From Candidatus Altiarchaeota archaeon (lineage in GTDB: Archaea; Altiarchaeota; Altiarchaeia; IMC4; SCGC-AAA252-I15): DNA of 55,841 nucleotides. The translations under genes were made by a program, and so were the position numbers. Below the pieces are notes generated by a model. That model was not told where the DNA came from. It saw nothing but the letters and a program-made list of their open reading frames with translations, and did no database searches. Numbering within the stretch: the stretch's first letter is position 1; each line of letters starts with the position of its first letter. This document shows, in pieces, positions 1-11,492 of the stretch. The stretch covers positions 1 through 55,841 of the forward strand of contig JAZDIN010000020.1 in assembly GCA_043804895.1 (NCBI GenBank), given 5' to 3'.

Positions 1-980
1 ACACCCTCAACTTCTTGGATTTCCCTGAAGCCCACCATAGAGCCCATATCATCGCTTGATATTTTCCTGCCAGTTAAGTCGGAGGAATACGCAATCGCTT
101 CTCCAACTGAGTCGCATATCATCTCAGCACCGATGGAATCCCTGATTCGGTGTTCGTTTTTCTTCACTTCGACGGTCTCTTTCACCCACCCAACCATCTC
201 CTGGACGGGTGGTGTGGGTTCGCCTTCCGGTATTTTCCTCATCCTCAGGCCTACATAATGCCTGACAACCTCCGAAACCTCGTGAAGTGTCACATTCCTT
301 ATGCCCAGCACCTCATGATTTTTTGAGACAAAAGACTGATAGAACGGCACCAGGTCCACAAACTCCCCCCTGGTACTTTCATCAATGTCTGGGGGCGCCC
401 GATCCAGTAGGTGGTGGTGGAATCCAACCGCGTCGACAAATCCGTTAAAAATCGCAAAAGAACCACGATTGTTTATCGTGTTCTGGTGAGAATAATGTTC
501 CCCTATTTTCCGGATTTTCATCTCCACACTAATTTCCTTGAGATGCACTTCCTGTTTACCCGGTCCTCCTTGCCCCTTCAATAACCCAAGACGTTCAAGT
601 GCGGAACGTTTATCATCAGCTTCGAGTTTTGAGGCATCGCTACCACCGACGGAGAGTAATGATATTGAACCTTCATTCTCGGAGTTGATGTCATCAACTA
701 GCTTTCTGAAAAGTTTCGGGTGCATCGGCACCCACACACCATGTGGGTCAAGTACCTCGGCGAAGAATTTCTCGTCAGTCAAGCTGCCAGGTAGCGAAAG
801 TGTTTTTTTACCTATCTGATATTCCACGCCAGTGTTGTCTTTTAGTCGTACCGTATCTTTTGAGTAGGTTGGCTCGCCTAAACCCCTCGCAGCCAAAACT
901 GCCGGCAGGGGGTGGAGGTCCTCCCCGGAAAGCTTCCGTATAGGGCCTTCCCCTTCTTCCGGTACCTTGGAGGCGATCAT
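1..980 (-). CDS. Orphan protein, 3'-truncated by the window edge (MIASKVPEEGEGPIRKLSGEDLHPLP...)
   Basis: ATG at 980 on the minus strand. Hand translation stays open for 326 codons to the window start. It is absent from the ORF track because there is no stop. TATA-like TATATA lies about 28 nt upstream, and the N-terminus is homologous to that of 1051..2517. Confidence 0.85.
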   Translation of the reverse strand, partial: MIASKVPEEGEGPIRKLSGEDLHPLPAVLAARGLGEPTYSKDTVRLKDNTGVEYQIGKKTLSLPGSLTDEKFFAEVLDPHGVWVPMHPKLFRKLVDDINSENEGSISLLSVGGSDASKLEADDKRSALERLGLLKGQGGPGKQEVHLKEISVEMKIRKIGEHYSHQNTINNRGSFAIFNGFVDAVGFHHHLLDRAPPDIDESTRGEFVDLVPFYQSFVSKNHEVLGIRNVTLHEVSEVVRHYVGLRMRKIPEGEPTPPVQEMVGWVKETVEVKKNEHRIRDSIGAEMICDSVGEAIAYSSDLTGRKISSDDMGSMVGFREIQEVEG

Positions 981-1008
981 GGTAATCTACGGGCGAGTTT
1001 CGGATATA
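921..1008 (-). repeat. 88-bp cassette copy 1 (TATA box, 5' spacer and first 20 codons)
   Basis: Ungapped match to 2458..2545 with about 13 mismatches by hand count. Confidence 0.92.
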
Positions 1009-1050
1009 TACGTATGTAGCCACGTGAGGGGGGATAACATTTTAATATTA

Positions 1051-2517
1051 TTATACCTCTTCGATGCTGATTATCTCGTTATGTTTGTAGAGGTTGGAGA
1101 AGGCATCAGGCCACTCTCGGCGTTGTATCGCGTCTTTTGGGGCTTTGAAACCGATTACCTTCTGTGGTTTTTGGGCTGTTAGGTTAGACATCATATCATA
1201 CTTTCGCATTCTCTCTACCAAGTCGAGGATAGCCTCCCGGCTTGCGGGGTAATACAGTCCTGATACCTCACATATGTTAGACTTGGGGCTGACGATGTCG
1301 TAGTATGGGCTTCTCTGTGGTATCGAAATGTAATATTCTGCAATGTCCCCCGGTGGCTTTGCTGCGAGCCTATTGTGTCTGTCTTCGAAGTCCCTGTCGA
1401 GCCTGTCTGCCATTATCTGCTTCCTTAGGTCTCCGAGCATATCCTTCATCTCCAGCATTAGGGGTATATTGCCAGTGTATTCTCTCCTGAAAGTCTCAAG
1501 ATCCTGCGGGTCTGAGAAGACGATGCCCATGATGTCATCTGTTTTGACTGTCGGTATTTTAACCTCCCATGTCGAGAAGAAAACGCCGCCAAGGTTATTT
1601 TTTTGTTCTAGCCTGCCTGTTAGAAATTCGTACATGAAGTCTTGGCCGCTGGAGTATACTTTACACGATCTCACAACTTCTTCGAAGAAGTATTCTCCGG
1701 ACGTCACCTCATTCAGATATTGCCCCAGCACCCGGTTCTCGTCTTCGTCGATTTTGCCTCCCTGCCTCTTTGCAACCAAGTCTTTGACGGTCCGCCACAT
1801 ATCAATGTCGGCTATGTCAGACAAGGTTGCGAACGCTCCGTCAGCCATAATGGCATGGGGGTGGATTAGGACCTGCACTTTGCCAAAATATTTGTCATCC
1901 GAAGCATTGGAGGGGACTCGCGCATAATGCGCGAACACGTAATTGTCCAACCCCACCTCCCTGTCGAGGCCGAACGTGTGCGTCTGCATGCTGTCAGCGC
2001 TCAGTGGATCGACCTTTCTTGCCTCTTCATACCTTTCCCTGTCAGTCTGGATATGCCCTGTTGAGATTATGCCCCTGAGGCCGTCTAATGTCGTGGTGTG
2101 TATGAGCGGCTGCGTCGCAGACAACGCGAAATCCTCGGCAGAGACGTTGTGCGGGCTGTGCGATAGTAGGCTGTAGTGGTTGTTGACAGCATAAAGGCGC
2201 AGAAGCGGAGTTTTTGAGTTTTTGATCCAAAGCCAATCATCTTCGCTGAAACGGCCCATGTAGTCTTCAAGATATTGGGGACATGATTCCGCATCCAGTC
2301 TTATCCCGTGCCTCTTGAGTTCCCCTTCTATCCTCCCTTTTTGCTCGTCTGATATTTTTCGCCTGACTCTCCTGCCGATTTCGTATTCGAAGTCTGCGTT
2401 CGTGCCGAAACGTCCGAACGTCTCGATAAAACTTTTCGTTGGAAGTTGTTTAGGAGGCTCCCCAGAAAGCTCCGGTATAGGGCCCTTGCCTTCTTCCGGT
2501 CCTTTGGGGACGATCAT
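1051..2517 (-). CDS. Orphan protein with a putative DarT/DUF4433-like ADP-ribosyltransferase domain
   Basis: 488-aa ORF. Motifs LIHTTTLDGLRGIISTGHIQT, GLDNYVFAHY and WEVKIPTVKTDDIMGIVF resemble the DarT pattern HxTxxxNLxxIxxxG / LxDYVxFY / E-xLV...I..I. The CDS is secure; the function is tentative. Confidence 0.6.
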   Translation of the reverse strand: MIVPKGPEEGKGPIPELSGEPPKQLPTKSFIETFGRFGTNADFEYEIGRRVRRKISDEQKGRIEGELKRHGIRLDAESCPQYLEDYMGRFSEDDWLWIKNSKTPLLRLYAVNNHYSLLSHSPHNVSAEDFALSATQPLIHTTTLDGLRGIISTGHIQTDRERYEEARKVDPLSADSMQTHTFGLDREVGLDNYVFAHYARVPSNASDDKYFGKVQVLIHPHAIMADGAFATLSDIADIDMWRTVKDLVAKRQGGKIDEDENRVLGQYLNEVTSGEYFFEEVVRSCKVYSSGQDFMYEFLTGRLEQKNNLGGVFFSTWEVKIPTVKTDDIMGIVFSDPQDLETFRREYTGNIPLMLEMKDMLGDLRKQIMADRLDRDFEDRHNRLAAKPPGDIAEYYISIPQRSPYYDIVSPKSNICEVSGLYYPASREAILDLVERMRKYDMMSNLTAQKPQKVIGFKAPKDAIQRREWPDAFSNLYKHNEIISIEEV

Positions 2518-2545
2518 AGTAATCTACGGGCAGGTTTCGGATATA
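2458..2545 (-). repeat. 88-bp cassette copy 2
   Basis: Matches 921..1008 and spans TTATAT, the spacer, the ATG at 2517 and codons MIVPKGPEEGKGPIPELSGE. Confidence 0.92.
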
Positions 2546-2547
2546 AG

Positions 2548-3237
2548 CTAGTATCCCCTGAACCGTTCCACAACTATGTTATCTGTTTTCACACCCAATC
2601 CTGCGAGCATCTCCTCCATCGCCTCAACCATCTTCGGCGGCCCGCAGAGGTAGAATGTCCTATCTTTATAGTCAGGTGTTTTGGCTAGTATGGTTTCTGT
2701 GTTGATGCGGCCTTTGAGTCCAGGCCATTCTTTTGACGGTTGTGAGAGGACGTGGACTACCTTCAGCTTCGGGTTTGACGTCATCATTTCCTCGAAATCT
2801 TTCCTGAATATGATGTCCTCCTCGGTCCGGTTGCCCCATATTAGGACGACGTCACAGTCGGCTTTAGTGTCTGTGAGGTACTTGCACATGCTCCTGAAGG
2901 GGGTTATCCCGATGCCGCCGGCGAGGAACGCTAGCTTCTTAAATGAGGGATTGTATGCGAAGGAGCCCATAGGACCGCTGAGAGTCACTTTGCCGCCGAC
3001 TGAGAGGCTGTTGAGGGCCTTCTTGTAGTCAGAGTCGGAAATCCGTGTAGTGAACTCTATGTAGCCTTCTTCGGTCGGCGAGCTTGAGAAGGAGAAGGGT
3101 TTCATTAGGGTGTTATCGAGCTTGAGTATGAAATAGTGGCCTGCCTGGTAGCTTAAATTTTTCGGCCTTGTGAGCCTGAAGCACTTCACGTCTTTTGCCA
3201 GCTCTGAGACGCTGACTAGGGTGAGTTCGTATTCCAT
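2548..3237 (-). CDS. FAD/NAD(P)-binding oxidoreductase (ferredoxin-NADP+ reductase family)
   Basis: Motifs PFSFSSSP, AGGIGITPF, YLCGPPKM and C-terminal ERF; TGATG overlap with the upstream gene. Confidence 0.88.
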   Translation of the reverse strand: MEYELTLVSVSELAKDVKCFRLTRPKNLSYQAGHYFILKLDNTLMKPFSFSSSPTEEGYIEFTTRISDSDYKKALNSLSVGGKVTLSGPMGSFAYNPSFKKLAFLAGGIGITPFRSMCKYLTDTKADCDVVLIWGNRTEEDIIFRKDFEEMMTSNPKLKVVHVLSQPSKEWPGLKGRINTETILAKTPDYKDRTFYLCGPPKMVEAMEEMLAGLGVKTDNIVVERFRGY

Positions 3238-4235
3238 CACAGCACCTTAAAGTCGACGCACAATCTGCTGATGCGTGGGCTGTAGCTTCCGCACAAGACC
3301 ACATCAAGTATCTCAGCCTTGACGCCCAGGCTGCCGACGGCCTCGGCAAGATGGCCGGTGGCTTCGAGGGTGTTTCTTGCGAACGTGTAGTAGTGTATTA
3401 CCCCGTCTTTTTTTAGGCAGGAGAACGCCACATCAAGGAAGGTATCAGCCTGTTTTGGAAGTGGCATGATTATCCTGTCGAACAACCCCAATGCTGGAAC
3501 TTTTTCCCTGACGTCACCCTCTATCACGTTCACATTCACCTTGTTCCTTAGGATGTTCCAGCGCATGTACTCGACTGCGATGGGATTCAACTCTATTGCT
3601 GTGACTTCCGCGCCACTCAACTTCGCAGCAAGTATCGCATAGGGGCCTACTCCTGCGAACATGACGAGGACGCGCTCGCCGTCGTGAATCTGGTTGACCA
3701 CGCGAAGCCTCTCAGAACCCAACCTCGGGCTGAAATAGGCCTTGGCTATGTCGAGCTTGTACACGCAGCCGTGTTCTCTGTGTATCGTTTCGGTTCTTTT
3801 CTCGCCTGCGATGACCTTGACTTGTGGGACGCGGTATTCACCTGAAACCTGCTCTACCTTCAACGCCACGACCTTAATGTTCCTGAACGTCCTGAGGAAT
3901 GCTTCTCCAACCAGCCTCATCTTATCAATAGGTATGCCTTCTGGCTCCAAGACTACGATGTCGCCGATGACGTTGAATGATGACGGCAGCGCCTCAAGCT
4001 CGTCAGCTGAGAGTATACCTGAGAGGGACTCCGCAAGGGAAGCTGGCCTCTTGGTCTTGATTCTGCCTTCGGCTTCGACGACTTCCGTTCCTGGAATCTT
4101 CACAGTTGAGAGTAGCGGGAACATGACGTATTCGCCGTCCCTCTCTACTGCCTTCGACTTGTCAAGAGAGGATTTTTCAAGTAGCTTCCTCCGAACTGAC
4201 TCTGCGTCCTCCCTTCTGACTTTGAGGTATTTCAC
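3237..4235 (-). CDS. trm5: Trm5/Taw2-family SAM-dependent tRNA methyltransferase
   Basis: Motifs YFSPRLGSER, MFAGVGPYA, ELNPIA and DRIIMPLP. GTG start at 4235 overlaps the VanZ stop, so the longer track ORF is over-extended. Confidence 0.85.
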   Translation of the reverse strand: MKYLKVRREDAESVRRKLLEKSSLDKSKAVERDGEYVMFPLLSTVKIPGTEVVEAEGRIKTKRPASLAESLSGILSADELEALPSSFNVIGDIVVLEPEGIPIDKMRLVGEAFLRTFRNIKVVALKVEQVSGEYRVPQVKVIAGEKRTETIHREHGCVYKLDIAKAYFSPRLGSERLRVVNQIHDGERVLVMFAGVGPYAILAAKLSGAEVTAIELNPIAVEYMRWNILRNKVNVNVIEGDVREKVPALGLFDRIIMPLPKQADTFLDVAFSCLKKDGVIHYYTFARNTLEATGHLAEAVGSLGVKAEILDVVLCGSYSPRISRLCVDFKVL

Positions 4236-4597: not shown

Positions 4598-5007
4598 TGT
4601 CTCTTGATTAAATCCACTATTATCCTGCTGGAATGTAGGCCCGCATCCCAGTACCGCTTTATCTTCACGACGCGGGTGTTAAGCCCCCGCAAGGAAAGCT
4701 CGGATTGCACTTCACCCTCGTCGAAGTCCTGGTCTGGGCCGATGGTGAGTATGTCTGGATTCAGCTGCGCTATTGTGGCGTACATGTCATGCTCATCGCC
4801 CAATATCGCATCATCTACCGGTTTCAGGGCTTTCAGCATGTGGAGGCGTTGGCTCTCTGATATCACCGGCCGCCTCTTTCTCCTCTTGGCTGTCTCGTCC
4901 CTGGCTACGACTACAACCAGCCTGTCTCCGAGCTTCTTCGAGTCCTCAAGATACTGTATGTGGCCTGGGTGGAGTATCTCGAAGACTCCTGTAGCGACTA
5001 CGAGCAT
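4594..5007 (-). CDS. ribL: Archaeal FAD synthase (cytidylyltransferase superfamily)
   Basis: Motifs VVATGVFEILHPGH, LVVVVARD, GPDQ and SSRII. Start trimmed to ATG 5007. Confidence 0.8.
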   Translation of the reverse strand: MLVVATGVFEILHPGHIQYLEDSKKLGDRLVVVVARDETAKRRKRRPVISESQRLHMLKALKPVDDAILGDEHDMYATIAQLNPDILTIGPDQDFDEGEVQSELSLRGLNTRVVKIKRYWDAGLHSSRIIVDLIKRQ

Positions 5008-9224: not shown

Positions 9225-11492
9225 ATGTTCGTGGAGCATCCTTTAGTGAGGGAGGGCAAGTTACAGTTGCGCCGCTACCAGGAGAGTATCGTAGCCAGGG
9301 CTGTGGAGGAGAGCACGCTTGTCGTCCTGCCGACCGGACTTGGCAAGACTGTTATCGCTGCAATGGTTGCCGCTCACCGCCTGCAGAAGTATCCAGGTAG
9401 CAGGGTATTGTTTCTTGCACCTACGAAGCCGCTTGTGGTGCAGCACATGAGGACTTTCCGGGAGCTTTTAAATGTTGAGGAGATGTGCGTTCTCACTGGA
9501 GAGGATGCTGTCGAAAAGAGGCGGGAGATGTGGGTCGGGAACAGGGTAATATTCGCGACACCCCAGACGATACAGAACGACGTCATCAGGGGGGTGAGTC
9601 TCCGCGACGTGTCGCTTGTGGTGTTCGACGAGGCTCATAGGGCTGTTGGGGATTACAGTTACGTGGCGATAGGTGCAGAGTATGTGAAATCTGCAGAGCA
9701 TCCGATGAGCCTTGGGTTGACTGCAAGCCCCTCAAGCGAGCGCGATAAGGTGGAGGAGATTTGCGCAAACCTTCGCACCAAGTACGTGGAGGCTAAGACA
9801 GACCTCGACTCTGACGTGAAGCCGTACATACAGGATGTTAAAGTCCACTGGGTGATGGTGGAGCTCCCTCAAGAATTCAAGCAGGTGCAGAAGCTATTGA
9901 AGGCAGTCCTTAAGGATGAGATTGAGAAGCTTAAGGAATTCGGTTACGTGCAGAGTTCTAACATGGGGCGAGTCAATAAGAGGGCGCTTTTAGAGGCTCA
10001 GCACAAGGTTAGGGGGGAGATAAGCTCTGGAGTTGAAGCGTATGCGGCGGCGTCGACAGTTGCGGCTGCAATCAAGGTGAACCACGGTATAGAGCTTCTG
10101 GAAACTCAAGGGATCGCAGCAGTAGATGAGTACTTCGAGAGGTTGAGGAAACAGGGCAGCAAGGCTGTGAAGGGGTTGATGAAGGACCTAGCCCTCATGA
10201 AGGCGATGACGGTGGTTGCGAAGATGCGGAAGGAGGGGGTGGAGCATCCAAAGATTGAGGAGCTTGTGAGAATAGTCTCAAGGTACAAGGGCAGGAAGGT
10301 GCTCGTGTTCACGCAGTATAGGGACTCAGTAGACATGATAATTAGGAGGCTGAACGAGGCTGACATACTCGCACACGAGTTCATAGGCCAGGCTGCGAGG
10401 GGCTTGAAGGAGGGGATGACGCAGAAGAGGCAGGTTGAGGTGTTAAATAAGTTCAGGGAGGGCGCGTACACCGCGCTTATCGCCACGTCCGTTGCTGAGG
10501 AGGGTTTGGACATACCGAAAGTGGATGCTGTCATTTTTTATGAGCCGGTTCCTTCAGAGATTAGGACTATACAGCGGAGGGGAAGGACTGGGAGGAGCGC
10601 AAGAGGGGAAGTCTACGTAATGATAGCGAAGGGCACGATGGATGAAGGCTACTACTGGGCGGCATTCCATAAGGAACGGAAGATGGGGGAAATGGTAAGG
10701 GACATGAGGAAGGGCTTGGTGAAGCAGAAGAGTATCGGAGAGTACGGAGTAGTTGAAGAGGAGCCAACTGCCGAAGATAACTCCAAGGGATTCGGGCAGC
10801 AAAGCCTATTCCAGTATGCCGTGGAGAAGGGGAGTAGAGTTAAGGTGATAGTCGACGTTAGGGAGCGCAACAGCAAGATACTATCAGTCCTGAAGGAGGT
10901 ATGCGACATCGAATTGAAGCAGCTTCCAGTCGGGGACTTCCTGCTATCCGACAGGGTCTGTGTCGAAAGAAAGACTGTCGGTGATTTCCTGCAGAGCATA
11001 GTGGACAAGAGACTTATGAGCCAGCTTTCTGAAATGAAGAGGAACTTCCAGATTCCTGTGCTCATACTAGAGGGGAGGGAGAGCATCTATTCGCAAAGGA
11101 ACATACACCCCAACGCTGCCAGGGGGGCGCTGGCTGCCATCGCCGTTGACTTCAACGTGCCGGTCATACCGACAGAAAACGAGGAGGACACGGCTCGTAT
11201 GCTTTATATGATAGCAAGGAGGGAGCAAGAGGAGAGCGGTCGTCCGGTCGCGTTGCGTGGCGAGAGGAAGCCGCAACTTTTGAAGGAGAAGCAACGGTTC
11301 ATCGTCGAGTCACTGCCTAACGTGTCGGCAGTCCTGGCTGATCGCCTCCTTGAGAGGTTCAACTCTGTCGAAGCGGTTATGACGACAGGCAGGAAGGAGT
11401 TACAAGCTATCGAAGGCATCGGCGAAAAGAAGGCTGAGGAGATAAGGAGGGTAGTGAAGAGCAGGTACGGTGAGGGGGACGAGAGTGGATGA
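9225..11492 (+). CDS. hef: Hef helicase/ERCC4 nuclease (FANCM/XPF homolog)
   Basis: Helicase motifs PTGLGKT, DEAH and QRRGRTGR; nuclease motif ERKTxxDF; C-terminal HhH pair. Confidence 0.95.
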   Translation: MFVEHPLVREGKLQLRRYQESIVARAVEESTLVVLPTGLGKTVIAAMVAAHRLQKYPGSRVLFLAPTKPLVVQHMRTFRELLNVEEMCVLTGEDAVEKRREMWVGNRVIFATPQTIQNDVIRGVSLRDVSLVVFDEAHRAVGDYSYVAIGAEYVKSAEHPMSLGLTASPSSERDKVEEICANLRTKYVEAKTDLDSDVKPYIQDVKVHWVMVELPQEFKQVQKLLKAVLKDEIEKLKEFGYVQSSNMGRVNKRALLEAQHKVRGEISSGVEAYAAASTVAAAIKVNHGIELLETQGIAAVDEYFERLRKQGSKAVKGLMKDLALMKAMTVVAKMRKEGVEHPKIEELVRIVSRYKGRKVLVFTQYRDSVDMIIRRLNEADILAHEFIGQAARGLKEGMTQKRQVEVLNKFREGAYTALIATSVAEEGLDIPKVDAVIFYEPVPSEIRTIQRRGRTGRSARGEVYVMIAKGTMDEGYYWAAFHKERKMGEMVRDMRKGLVKQKSIGEYGVVEEEPTAEDNSKGFGQQSLFQYAVEKGSRVKVIVDVRERNSKILSVLKEVCDIELKQLPVGDFLLSDRVCVERKTVGDFLQSIVDKRLMSQLSEMKRNFQIPVLILEGRESIYSQRNIHPNAARGALAAIAVDFNVPVIPTENEEDTARMLYMIARREQEESGRPVALRGERKPQLLKEKQRFIVESLPNVSAVLADRLLERFNSVEAVMTTGRKELQAIEGIGEKKAEEIRRVVKSRYGEGDESG

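Follow-up and report, generated by a model that had tools for sequence, protein, structure and literature searches.

Genes with a conserved front end and variable bodies are familiar from the vlp and vsp surface lipoprotein genes of Mycoplasma and from polymorphic toxin systems, families of many members that carry a signal peptide or trafficking domain and are served by switching or recombination machinery. Another route to a shared front end is the chimeric gene formed by partial duplication or illegitimate recombination, in which a short 5' promoter and the first codons likewise come to head an unrelated body. In the excerpts of two papers on which we draw, such capture of a promoter or 5' end is described mostly for eukaryotes and laboratory-evolved bacteria (PMC3449122, PMC13626634). 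Here, we describe two adjacent genes, A and B, of a Candidatus Altiarchaeota archaeon (assembly GCA_043804895.1) that begin with the same 88 base pairs. They lie at the start of contig JAZDIN010000020.1 (C20 below), whose 55,841 nucleotides, read on the forward strand, are the whole stretch analysed and are called the window. An earlier note on its first 2,545 positions had read the two as tandem orphan genes and as a candidate polymorphic effector system, with a common export leader or with cargo swapped by recombination. We favour a different explanation, to which we give slightly better than an even chance: the shared 88 base pairs are a partial (5'-end) duplication that handed a working expression module to a neighbouring gene.

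The repeat itself is as it had been described: an ungapped direct repeat of 88 nucleotides in which 75 bases are identical (85%), each copy holding a TATA box, a spacer, the ATG and 20 codons (Table 1). Both copies lie on the minus strand within one contig, 1537 nucleotides apart, and differ at 13 positions. A BLAST search with the 88-mer against the whole genome (1.58 Mb in 71 contigs) returned the second copy with an E value of 4e-23. The edges are sharp: in the sense of the genes, similarity runs from the TATA box through codon 20, and identity in 20-nucleotide windows is 80-85% within the repeat versus 5-40% beyond it. The two 20-residue leader peptides read as the earlier note wrote them and are identical at 14 of 20 residues; their alignment scores 69, against 21.7 +/- 4.7 for shuffled sequences, and none of 1000 shuffles scored as high. 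Other, shorter repeats (22-28 nucleotides, 73-77%) do not keep to the coding frames, and we consider them chance.

The pattern of differences says something about age. Across the 20 leader codons there are four synonymous and six non-synonymous differences, giving a synonymous rate (dS) of 0.34, a non-synonymous rate (dN) of 0.145, and a ratio of 0.42. The 28-nucleotide promoter part of the module has three differences between copies, compared with 10 in the 60 nucleotides of the coding part, and the non-coding part is thus at least as conserved as the coding part. Because synonymous sites are nowhere near saturation and yet the bodies of the two genes cannot be aligned, the 88 base pairs have a much younger ancestor than the bodies. 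Under a partial duplication, one gene would have received, in frame at its head, a copy of its neighbour's promoter, transcription start, ATG and first 20 codons. A second reading frame, acquired or newly formed, would in this way have gained a working archaeal expression module, and as a by-product genes A and B would have come under the same control. We infer both this mechanism and any direction of copying from the two copies as they stand today.

It had also been claimed that similarity ends after the leader and that the bodies look unrelated, and on this blastn, tblastx, hhalign, hmmsearch and shuffling all agree. Beyond codon 20, blastn and tblastx of A against B returned nothing, and a profile of the gene B family finds A with an hhalign probability of 0.2% and an hmmsearch E value of 0.55. 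The two bodies align locally with a best score of 50, which is at least equalled in 34 of 2000 shuffles; among 18 unrelated control proteins taken from the window, one scores 51. Just after the leader there is a short match, RLKDNTGVEYQIGKK versus RFGTNADFEYEIGRR, with a score equalled in 49 of 1000 shuffles. By sequence comparison the bodies of A and B are unrelated. One could instead suppose that the two arose long ago as tandem paralogs, that their bodies have since diverged past recognition, and that gene conversion recently matched their 5' ends. Their tandem position, common orientation and similar length (488 and ~510 amino acids) would fit, as would the weak extra similarity after the leader, but the family profile is blind to A, and the score between the bodies is equalled by an unrelated control protein. 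In addition, A has three internal repeats that B does not have, conversion requires flanking homology and none remains, and no tandem second copy was seen among the gene B relatives found. We therefore regard old paralogy as quite improbable, and partial duplication as likelier than conversion of the 5' ends.

Table 1. Features of the A-B locus, in window coordinates
Feature	Position	Strand	Remarks
Module copy 1	921..1008	-	Core promoter 981-1008 and gene A codons 1-20 (921-980)
Module copy 2	2458..2545	-	Core promoter 2518-2545 and gene B codons 1-20 (2458-2517)
TATA box of gene A	1004..1010	-	TATATAT in gene sense; 30 to 24 nucleotides before the ATG at 980-978
TATA box of gene B	2541..2546	-	TTATAT in gene sense; 29 to 24 nucleotides before the ATG at 2517-2515
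Gene A, first 326 codons	3..980	-	Cut by contig start; soluble, acidic, no family match
Gene A internal repeat 1	3..353	-	First of three (~115 amino acids each), residues ~210-326; repeats 2 and 3 on contig C46
Spacer, gene B stop codon to gene A TATA box	1009..1050	.	42 nucleotides; no repeat elsewhere in genome
Gene B	1051..2517	-	488 amino acids plus stop; unnamed family, members ~500 amino acids
Predicted ADP-ribosyltransferase-fold core of gene B	1447..2139	-	Residues 127-357; candidate triad H140, Y193/F195, E318
FNR-like oxidoreductase gene	2548..3240	-	FAD_binding_6 and NAD_binding_1; conserved right flank of insertion

To place the non-coding half of the module, the regions upstream of 1036 ATG-started open reading frames of at least 200 amino acids in this genome were surveyed. 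TATA-like 5-mers peak at -34 to -27, with 45, 62, 99 and 68 per 2-nucleotide bin as against 6-25 elsewhere, and leaderless transcripts are on this evidence the norm in this genome. The TATA boxes of the module start at -30 and -29, on that genome-wide peak, and so look like those of ordinary leaderless promoters; the box of gene B lies one nucleotide from the stop codon (2548-2550) of the upstream FNR-like gene. Each module copy would then be a leaderless archaeal core promoter with its transcription start at or beside the ATG. What the earlier note called a spacer is probably the plain distance from TATA box to start site, and a 5' leader RNA is probably absent. The possibility of an RNA structure in the shared 5' region was considered and dropped: the first 82 nucleotides of the two presumed mRNAs have z scores of -0.19 and -0.56 relative to shuffles, and the two 5' ends fold differently from each other. 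A second, smaller upstream signal, a Shine-Dalgarno-like peak at -12 to -9, is also seen genome-wide, and the organism appears to initiate translation in both ways.

The number of copies bears most directly on the proposed effector system. No third copy of the 88-mer is present in the 1.58-Mb genome, where the best other match is a 20-nucleotide chance match. A search of 60 further genomes of the phylum yielded nothing beyond matches of 14-27 nucleotides (E values of at least 0.06), and viral contigs hold no copy of the promoter pattern. A scan of metagenomes, which required an exact 20-base match and hence has low sensitivity to diverged copies, gave a single match (L029), which we set aside as chance: the sequence around it does not resemble the module, and the match falls within other genes on a contig unrelated to this one. 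Within the library and terms searched, the literature returned no paper on the family of gene B or on such a module in archaea. A shared promoter-plus-leader module on adjacent, co-oriented genes therefore stands, and the idea of a polymorphic effector system does not, since the module occurs in two copies only across its own genome, the 60 relatives, the metagenome pattern scan and the viral contigs. The earlier note had itself named, as what would overturn it, only two copies together with structures showing the bodies to be diverged full-length paralogs; only two copies exist in everything searched, and the structural half rested on a model of A that failed (pLDDT 34; see below). This is not a new kind of system, and the effector-array reading fails on copy number.

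One further pair of upstream regions was seen elsewhere. In locus L021, from the bacterial chromosome OY969420.1, positions 4700-4759 and 10303-10362 are 60-nucleotide upstream regions ending in ATG with 82% identity, one in front of a gene B relative and the other in front of a gene 5.6 kb off whose protein looks unrelated. This pair may be a second case of a reused promoter before a family member, or it could be a common strong promoter of that small bacterial genome.

Gene B belongs to an unnamed family of proteins. Its layout comprises a disordered leader (residues 1-27), an N-terminal helical domain, an ADP-ribosyltransferase (ART)-fold core and a C-terminal alpha/beta domain. A word-indexed search of 5.8 billion proteins returned one relative, P0002, at 35% identity and without the leader, and an exhaustive profile search with gene B returned 77 representative proteins at E <=1e-3, of which 65 reach E <=1e-10; most are ~500 amino acids long. 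An alignment of 63 family sequences shows the motifs PLVHGTS, DRxLGLDxYVF, FxTExD and FSTWEVK, with E318, K320 and F195 nearly invariant. Gene B has no match in Pfam (E up to 1), NCBIfam, PADLOC or PHROGs; the sole sequence-profile match of the family in the PDB, a sorting nexin at E 0.15, we attribute to chance. In the ESM Atlas, gene B had only weak structural matches below the threshold (DarT, TM 0.29-0.32), which served as no more than a lead.

The leader is foreign to this family. It heads none of the 77 relatives, and both the conservation of the family and the model structure begin near residue 28. P0002 is recorded with 26 residues before its second Met, and its start seems to have been called too far upstream. 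From the second Met it is only ~7 residues to the position aligned with residue 21 of gene B, so that the 20-residue leader of gene B is extra even in comparison with its closest relative. The leader is hydrophilic, acidic and rich in Pro and Gly; it lacks hydrophobic or signal-like character and has no match in Pfam, NCBIfam, PADLOC or PHROGs. Similarly, neither protein A nor protein B contains a hydrophobic 19-mer above 1.43 on the Kyte-Doolittle scale. A common export leader, as had been suggested, fits poorly with a peptide that is hydrophilic, disordered in the model and missing from every relative of gene B. We think that it is probably a passenger of the copied DNA and not an export signal.

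The rival view is that the 20-residue tag is functional and kept by selection, addressing both proteins together through non-Sec export, a shared compartment or partner, or regulated proteolysis. In its favour, 14 of 20 leader residues are identical while nothing else in A and B aligns, the dN/dS ratio of 0.42 is below 1, the fusion is in frame both times, and the fold of gene B is that of toxins and injected effectors. Yet only two carriers were found, the tag is missing from 77 of 77 relatives of gene B and is disordered in the model, and it has no signal-like or hydrophobic character. The distribution of differences (three of 28 in the promoter, 10 of 60 in the coding part) is better explained by common descent of the DNA than by selection on the peptide, and with dS at only 0.34 the identity needs no selection. 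On balance, a functional tag seems unlikely to us. More speculative, and somewhat less likely again, is the notion that the 88 base pairs are a reusable kit pasted onto incoming foreign genes, with the tag giving them a common fate, B being a Patescibacteria-derived effector and A its partner or immunity protein. Were this true, the common fate would be co-assembly, non-classical export to neighbouring cells or episymbionts, or timed degradation.

The distribution of the gene B family points towards bacteria. A locus search with a 12-sequence alignment of the family found nine genome loci that encode relatives, eight titled as Patescibacteria lineages and one as "uncultured bacterium". In a family tree (FastTree only, midpoint-rooted), the nine loci are scattered over the whole tree, and one falls in the clade that holds B and P0002. 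The family occurs in three of 301 sampled Patescibacteria genomes including the centre genome, the other two matches being weak and partial, and relatives are found in none of the 60 other genomes of the archaeal phylum and in no viral contigs. The simplest reading would be a transfer of gene B from Patescibacteria-like bacteria into this archaeon, and gene B was probably acquired across domains. Across the nine loci there is no conserved neighbour, except a ychF-like gene in three Saccharibacteria-like loci. Near the relative on a Saccharimonadales contig (L024), positions 1377-1429 and 1560-1612 are identical 53-nucleotide tRNA-like stretches 183 nucleotides apart, probably a tandem pair of tRNA genes.

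An AlphaFold2 model of gene B, built from the 63-sequence alignment, has a mean predicted local distance difference test (pLDDT) score of 88 and a predicted template modelling score (pTM) of 0.87. Residues 1-30, taken in blocks of ten, have mean pLDDT values of 50, 62 and 68, and residues 1-27 are without secondary structure. Foldseek against the PDB returned DarT, CopC, OspC3 and SopF at E values of 4e-5 to 6e-3; DarT, CopC and OspC3 came at 4e-5 to 2e-3, with probability 1.00. Superposition with VIA-align gave Z 11.7 for CopC (root-mean-square deviation 4.8, 210 residues aligned), 11.3 for OspC3, 11.2 to 10.0 for DarT (at Z 11.2, deviation 3.2 over 168 residues), 9.1 for SopF and 6.6 for Tpt1. 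Sixteen PDB entries reached a Z of at least 5, and the best entry after these NAD-using enzymes and effectors had Z 4.4. On the model, then, gene B has an ART fold, with the split beta-sheet that binds NAD+ in this superfamily, and we infer from it an NAD+-using, toxin-like enzyme.

The ART superfamily is described, in the part of the source that concerns us, as having an H-Y-E (or R-S-E) triad with a catalytic Glu (PMC8883491), and an excerpt on CopC gives its triad as H137, F183 and E325 (PMC9239266). By order, spacing and strand positions in the model, H140, F195 (or Y193) and E318 of gene B would correspond to this triad as that excerpt gives it. The first position is H or Y within the family, with Tyr in many members.

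Gene A is of a different character. Two protein searches, the ESM Atlas and the 60 genomes of the phylum hold no relatives, and Pfam, NCBIfam, PADLOC and PHROGs give no family match; a match in the relative G006 (E 0.003) is chance, since the stretch encodes a membrane protein in another frame. By these searches gene A is a true orphan. The pair had been called tandem orphans, which holds for A and fails for B, with its 77 representative relatives and known fold. The protein contains three internal repeats in tandem: repeat 1 matches repeat 2 at 42% identity over 65 amino acids (E 3e-14) and repeat 3 at 23% over 47 amino acids (E 2e-4), and repeat 3 is shortened where the reading frame meets the end of the neighbouring MiaB-like gene.

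Could A and B be a functional pair, in which B is an ADP-ribosylating, toxin-like protein and A its immunity protein, regulator or substrate adaptor, as a DarTG-like or effector-immunity-like island? The two genes are adjacent, co-oriented and inserted together under near-identical promoters; the fold of gene B matches DarT toxins and ART effectors, and its family is sporadic in the way of conflict genes (three of 301 Patescibacteria genomes). The missing conserved neighbour at the nine family loci nevertheless speaks against a fixed travelling partner, and A has no macrodomain or other family match. No Macro domain (PF01661, E up to 1) was found anywhere in the genome, which is 88.7% complete, and PADLOC detects neither A nor B. 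Antitoxins are usually much smaller than ~510 amino acids, and A is far larger than that norm. A complex prediction of B (with alignment) and A scored 0.00, which gives no verdict and is uninformative either way. We hold a functional pair to be possible but doubtful.

The surroundings of the two genes tell how they came to lie where they do. The window starts where contig C20 starts, and gene A, which was missing from the open reading frame track used earlier, as had been pointed out, runs off that contig start, which explains the omission. Another contig, C46 (3158 nucleotides), ends with the identical 141 nucleotides: window 1-141 equals C46 3018-3158 (locus L011), probably a k-mer overlap of the assembler, and the gap at the window start can be closed with it. 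On C46, gene A has 184 further codons (2465-3157, minus strand), for a total of ~510 amino acids. A convergent MiaB-like gene (UPF0004, Radical_SAM and TRAM) follows, and its 3' end overlaps the gene A stop codon. An array that continues to the left, which had been thought possible, is not what the overlap shows: gene A ends against the MiaB-like gene. The 3' ends of the MiaB-like and FNR-like genes touch or overlap in the relatives G001, G006 and G004, and in G003 the two genes are ~555 nucleotides apart with a TPR gene between them. This gene order in four relatives confirms that the C46-C20 join is real and that the two contigs are true neighbours. It also makes A and B a ~3.1-kb insertion private to this genome, placed where two convergent housekeeping genes meet at their 3' ends.

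Nothing unusual is seen among the genes on either side (TRM5/TYW2, a cytidylyltransferase-like gene and eIF-6), and the presence of eIF-6 identifies the host as archaeal. In G003, a member of the same genus, the insert at this junction is the gene of a 168-amino-acid TPR protein (L015 6240-6746; TPR_2, E 3.6e-32), and insertion of accessory genes where the FNR-like and MiaB-like genes converge seems to recur. From a public DNA run of a subsurface metagenome, a 166-nucleotide contig matches window 1837-2002, within gene B, without a difference, the run otherwise giving only short unlike pieces; either gene B or its organism is present at low depth in another data set, or the run goes back to the source sample itself.

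Two rival readings can be judged from this evidence. The first is that the 88-mer is a recombination site bounding mobile one-gene cassettes whose cargo is swapped there, in the manner of an integron. The repeat does head each of two single-gene units in an inserted island, and the same junction has a different insert, the TPR gene, in G003. Against this, the 88-mer is found nowhere else in the genome or in the 60 relatives; unlike attC-type sites, it holds a start codon and 20 in-frame codons; and no third copy closes the array at its left end. The conserved housekeeping flanks contain no recombinase or secretion gene, which tells equally against the swapping of cargo that had been proposed. 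We consider a cassette site very unlikely. The second is that the repeat, or the whole locus, is an artefact of an assembly in 71 contigs in which the window begins at a contig end. Had a read path been collapsed or duplicated, the copies would be identical, but these lie in one contig, 1537 nucleotides apart, with 13 differences; the join of the contigs is backed by the gene order of four relatives, and the identical 166-nucleotide contig comes from another public DNA run, although it says nothing about the two copies or about the join. An artefact is barely credible.

It is important to set out what weighs against the partial duplication that we favour. Two copies cannot tell the direction of copying, and with 10 differences a dN/dS ratio of 0.42 leaves room for some constraint on the peptide. 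Further copies could hide in the part missing from the 88.7%-complete genome, and the metagenome scan would miss copies as diverged as these two are from each other. Leaderless transcription and activity of the two promoters are predictions from the sequence. B and P0002 are on long branches of the midpoint-rooted FastTree tree, so that Patescibacteria are a candidate donor only. Finally, the single-sequence model of gene A (326 amino acids) is unusable, with pLDDT 34 and pTM 0.19, and on structural grounds a distant paralogy of the bodies would be conceivable.

If partial duplication is correct, the locus would be a clean and datable archaeal case of how an acquired gene gets expressed, in which a complete leaderless module is copied onto a second gene, and it would bear on how bacterial genes become usable after transfer into archaea. 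In addition, gene B defines an unnamed family of ~500 amino acids with a predicted ART fold, for which Pfam, NCBIfam and PADLOC have no model. The family links Patescibacteria and one archaeon: it is sporadic in the former and occurs once in an archaeon that shares their groundwater-type habitats.

How, then, does this locus compare with what has been described? Among known enzymes, the likeness is to CopC, OspC3 and DarT, on which the core of gene B (residues ~41/127 to 357) superposes at Z 10-11.7. DarT has ~200 amino acids and is paired with a macrodomain antitoxin, DarG, whereas gene B encodes 488 amino acids and has no such partner. The DarT profile PF14487 matches one of the 63 members of the gene B family (E 0.006) and nothing in the whole genome at E up to 10. 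OspC and CopC, by the excerpt available, have C-terminal ankyrin repeats and an E-x-H motif (PMC9239266), whereas gene B has an alpha/beta C-terminal domain, no ankyrin match in Pfam, and E318-V-K320 in place of the motif.

In comparison with the vlp and vsp genes and the polymorphic toxins, there are two members here instead of many, the shared part is a hydrophilic, disordered tag, and no such machinery accompanies it. With the chimeric genes made by partial duplication or illegitimate recombination this locus has in common its sharp edges of homology and its young shared part. Unlike those chimeras, the unit copied here would be a complete leaderless archaeal module, and both of its carriers lie in an inserted island.

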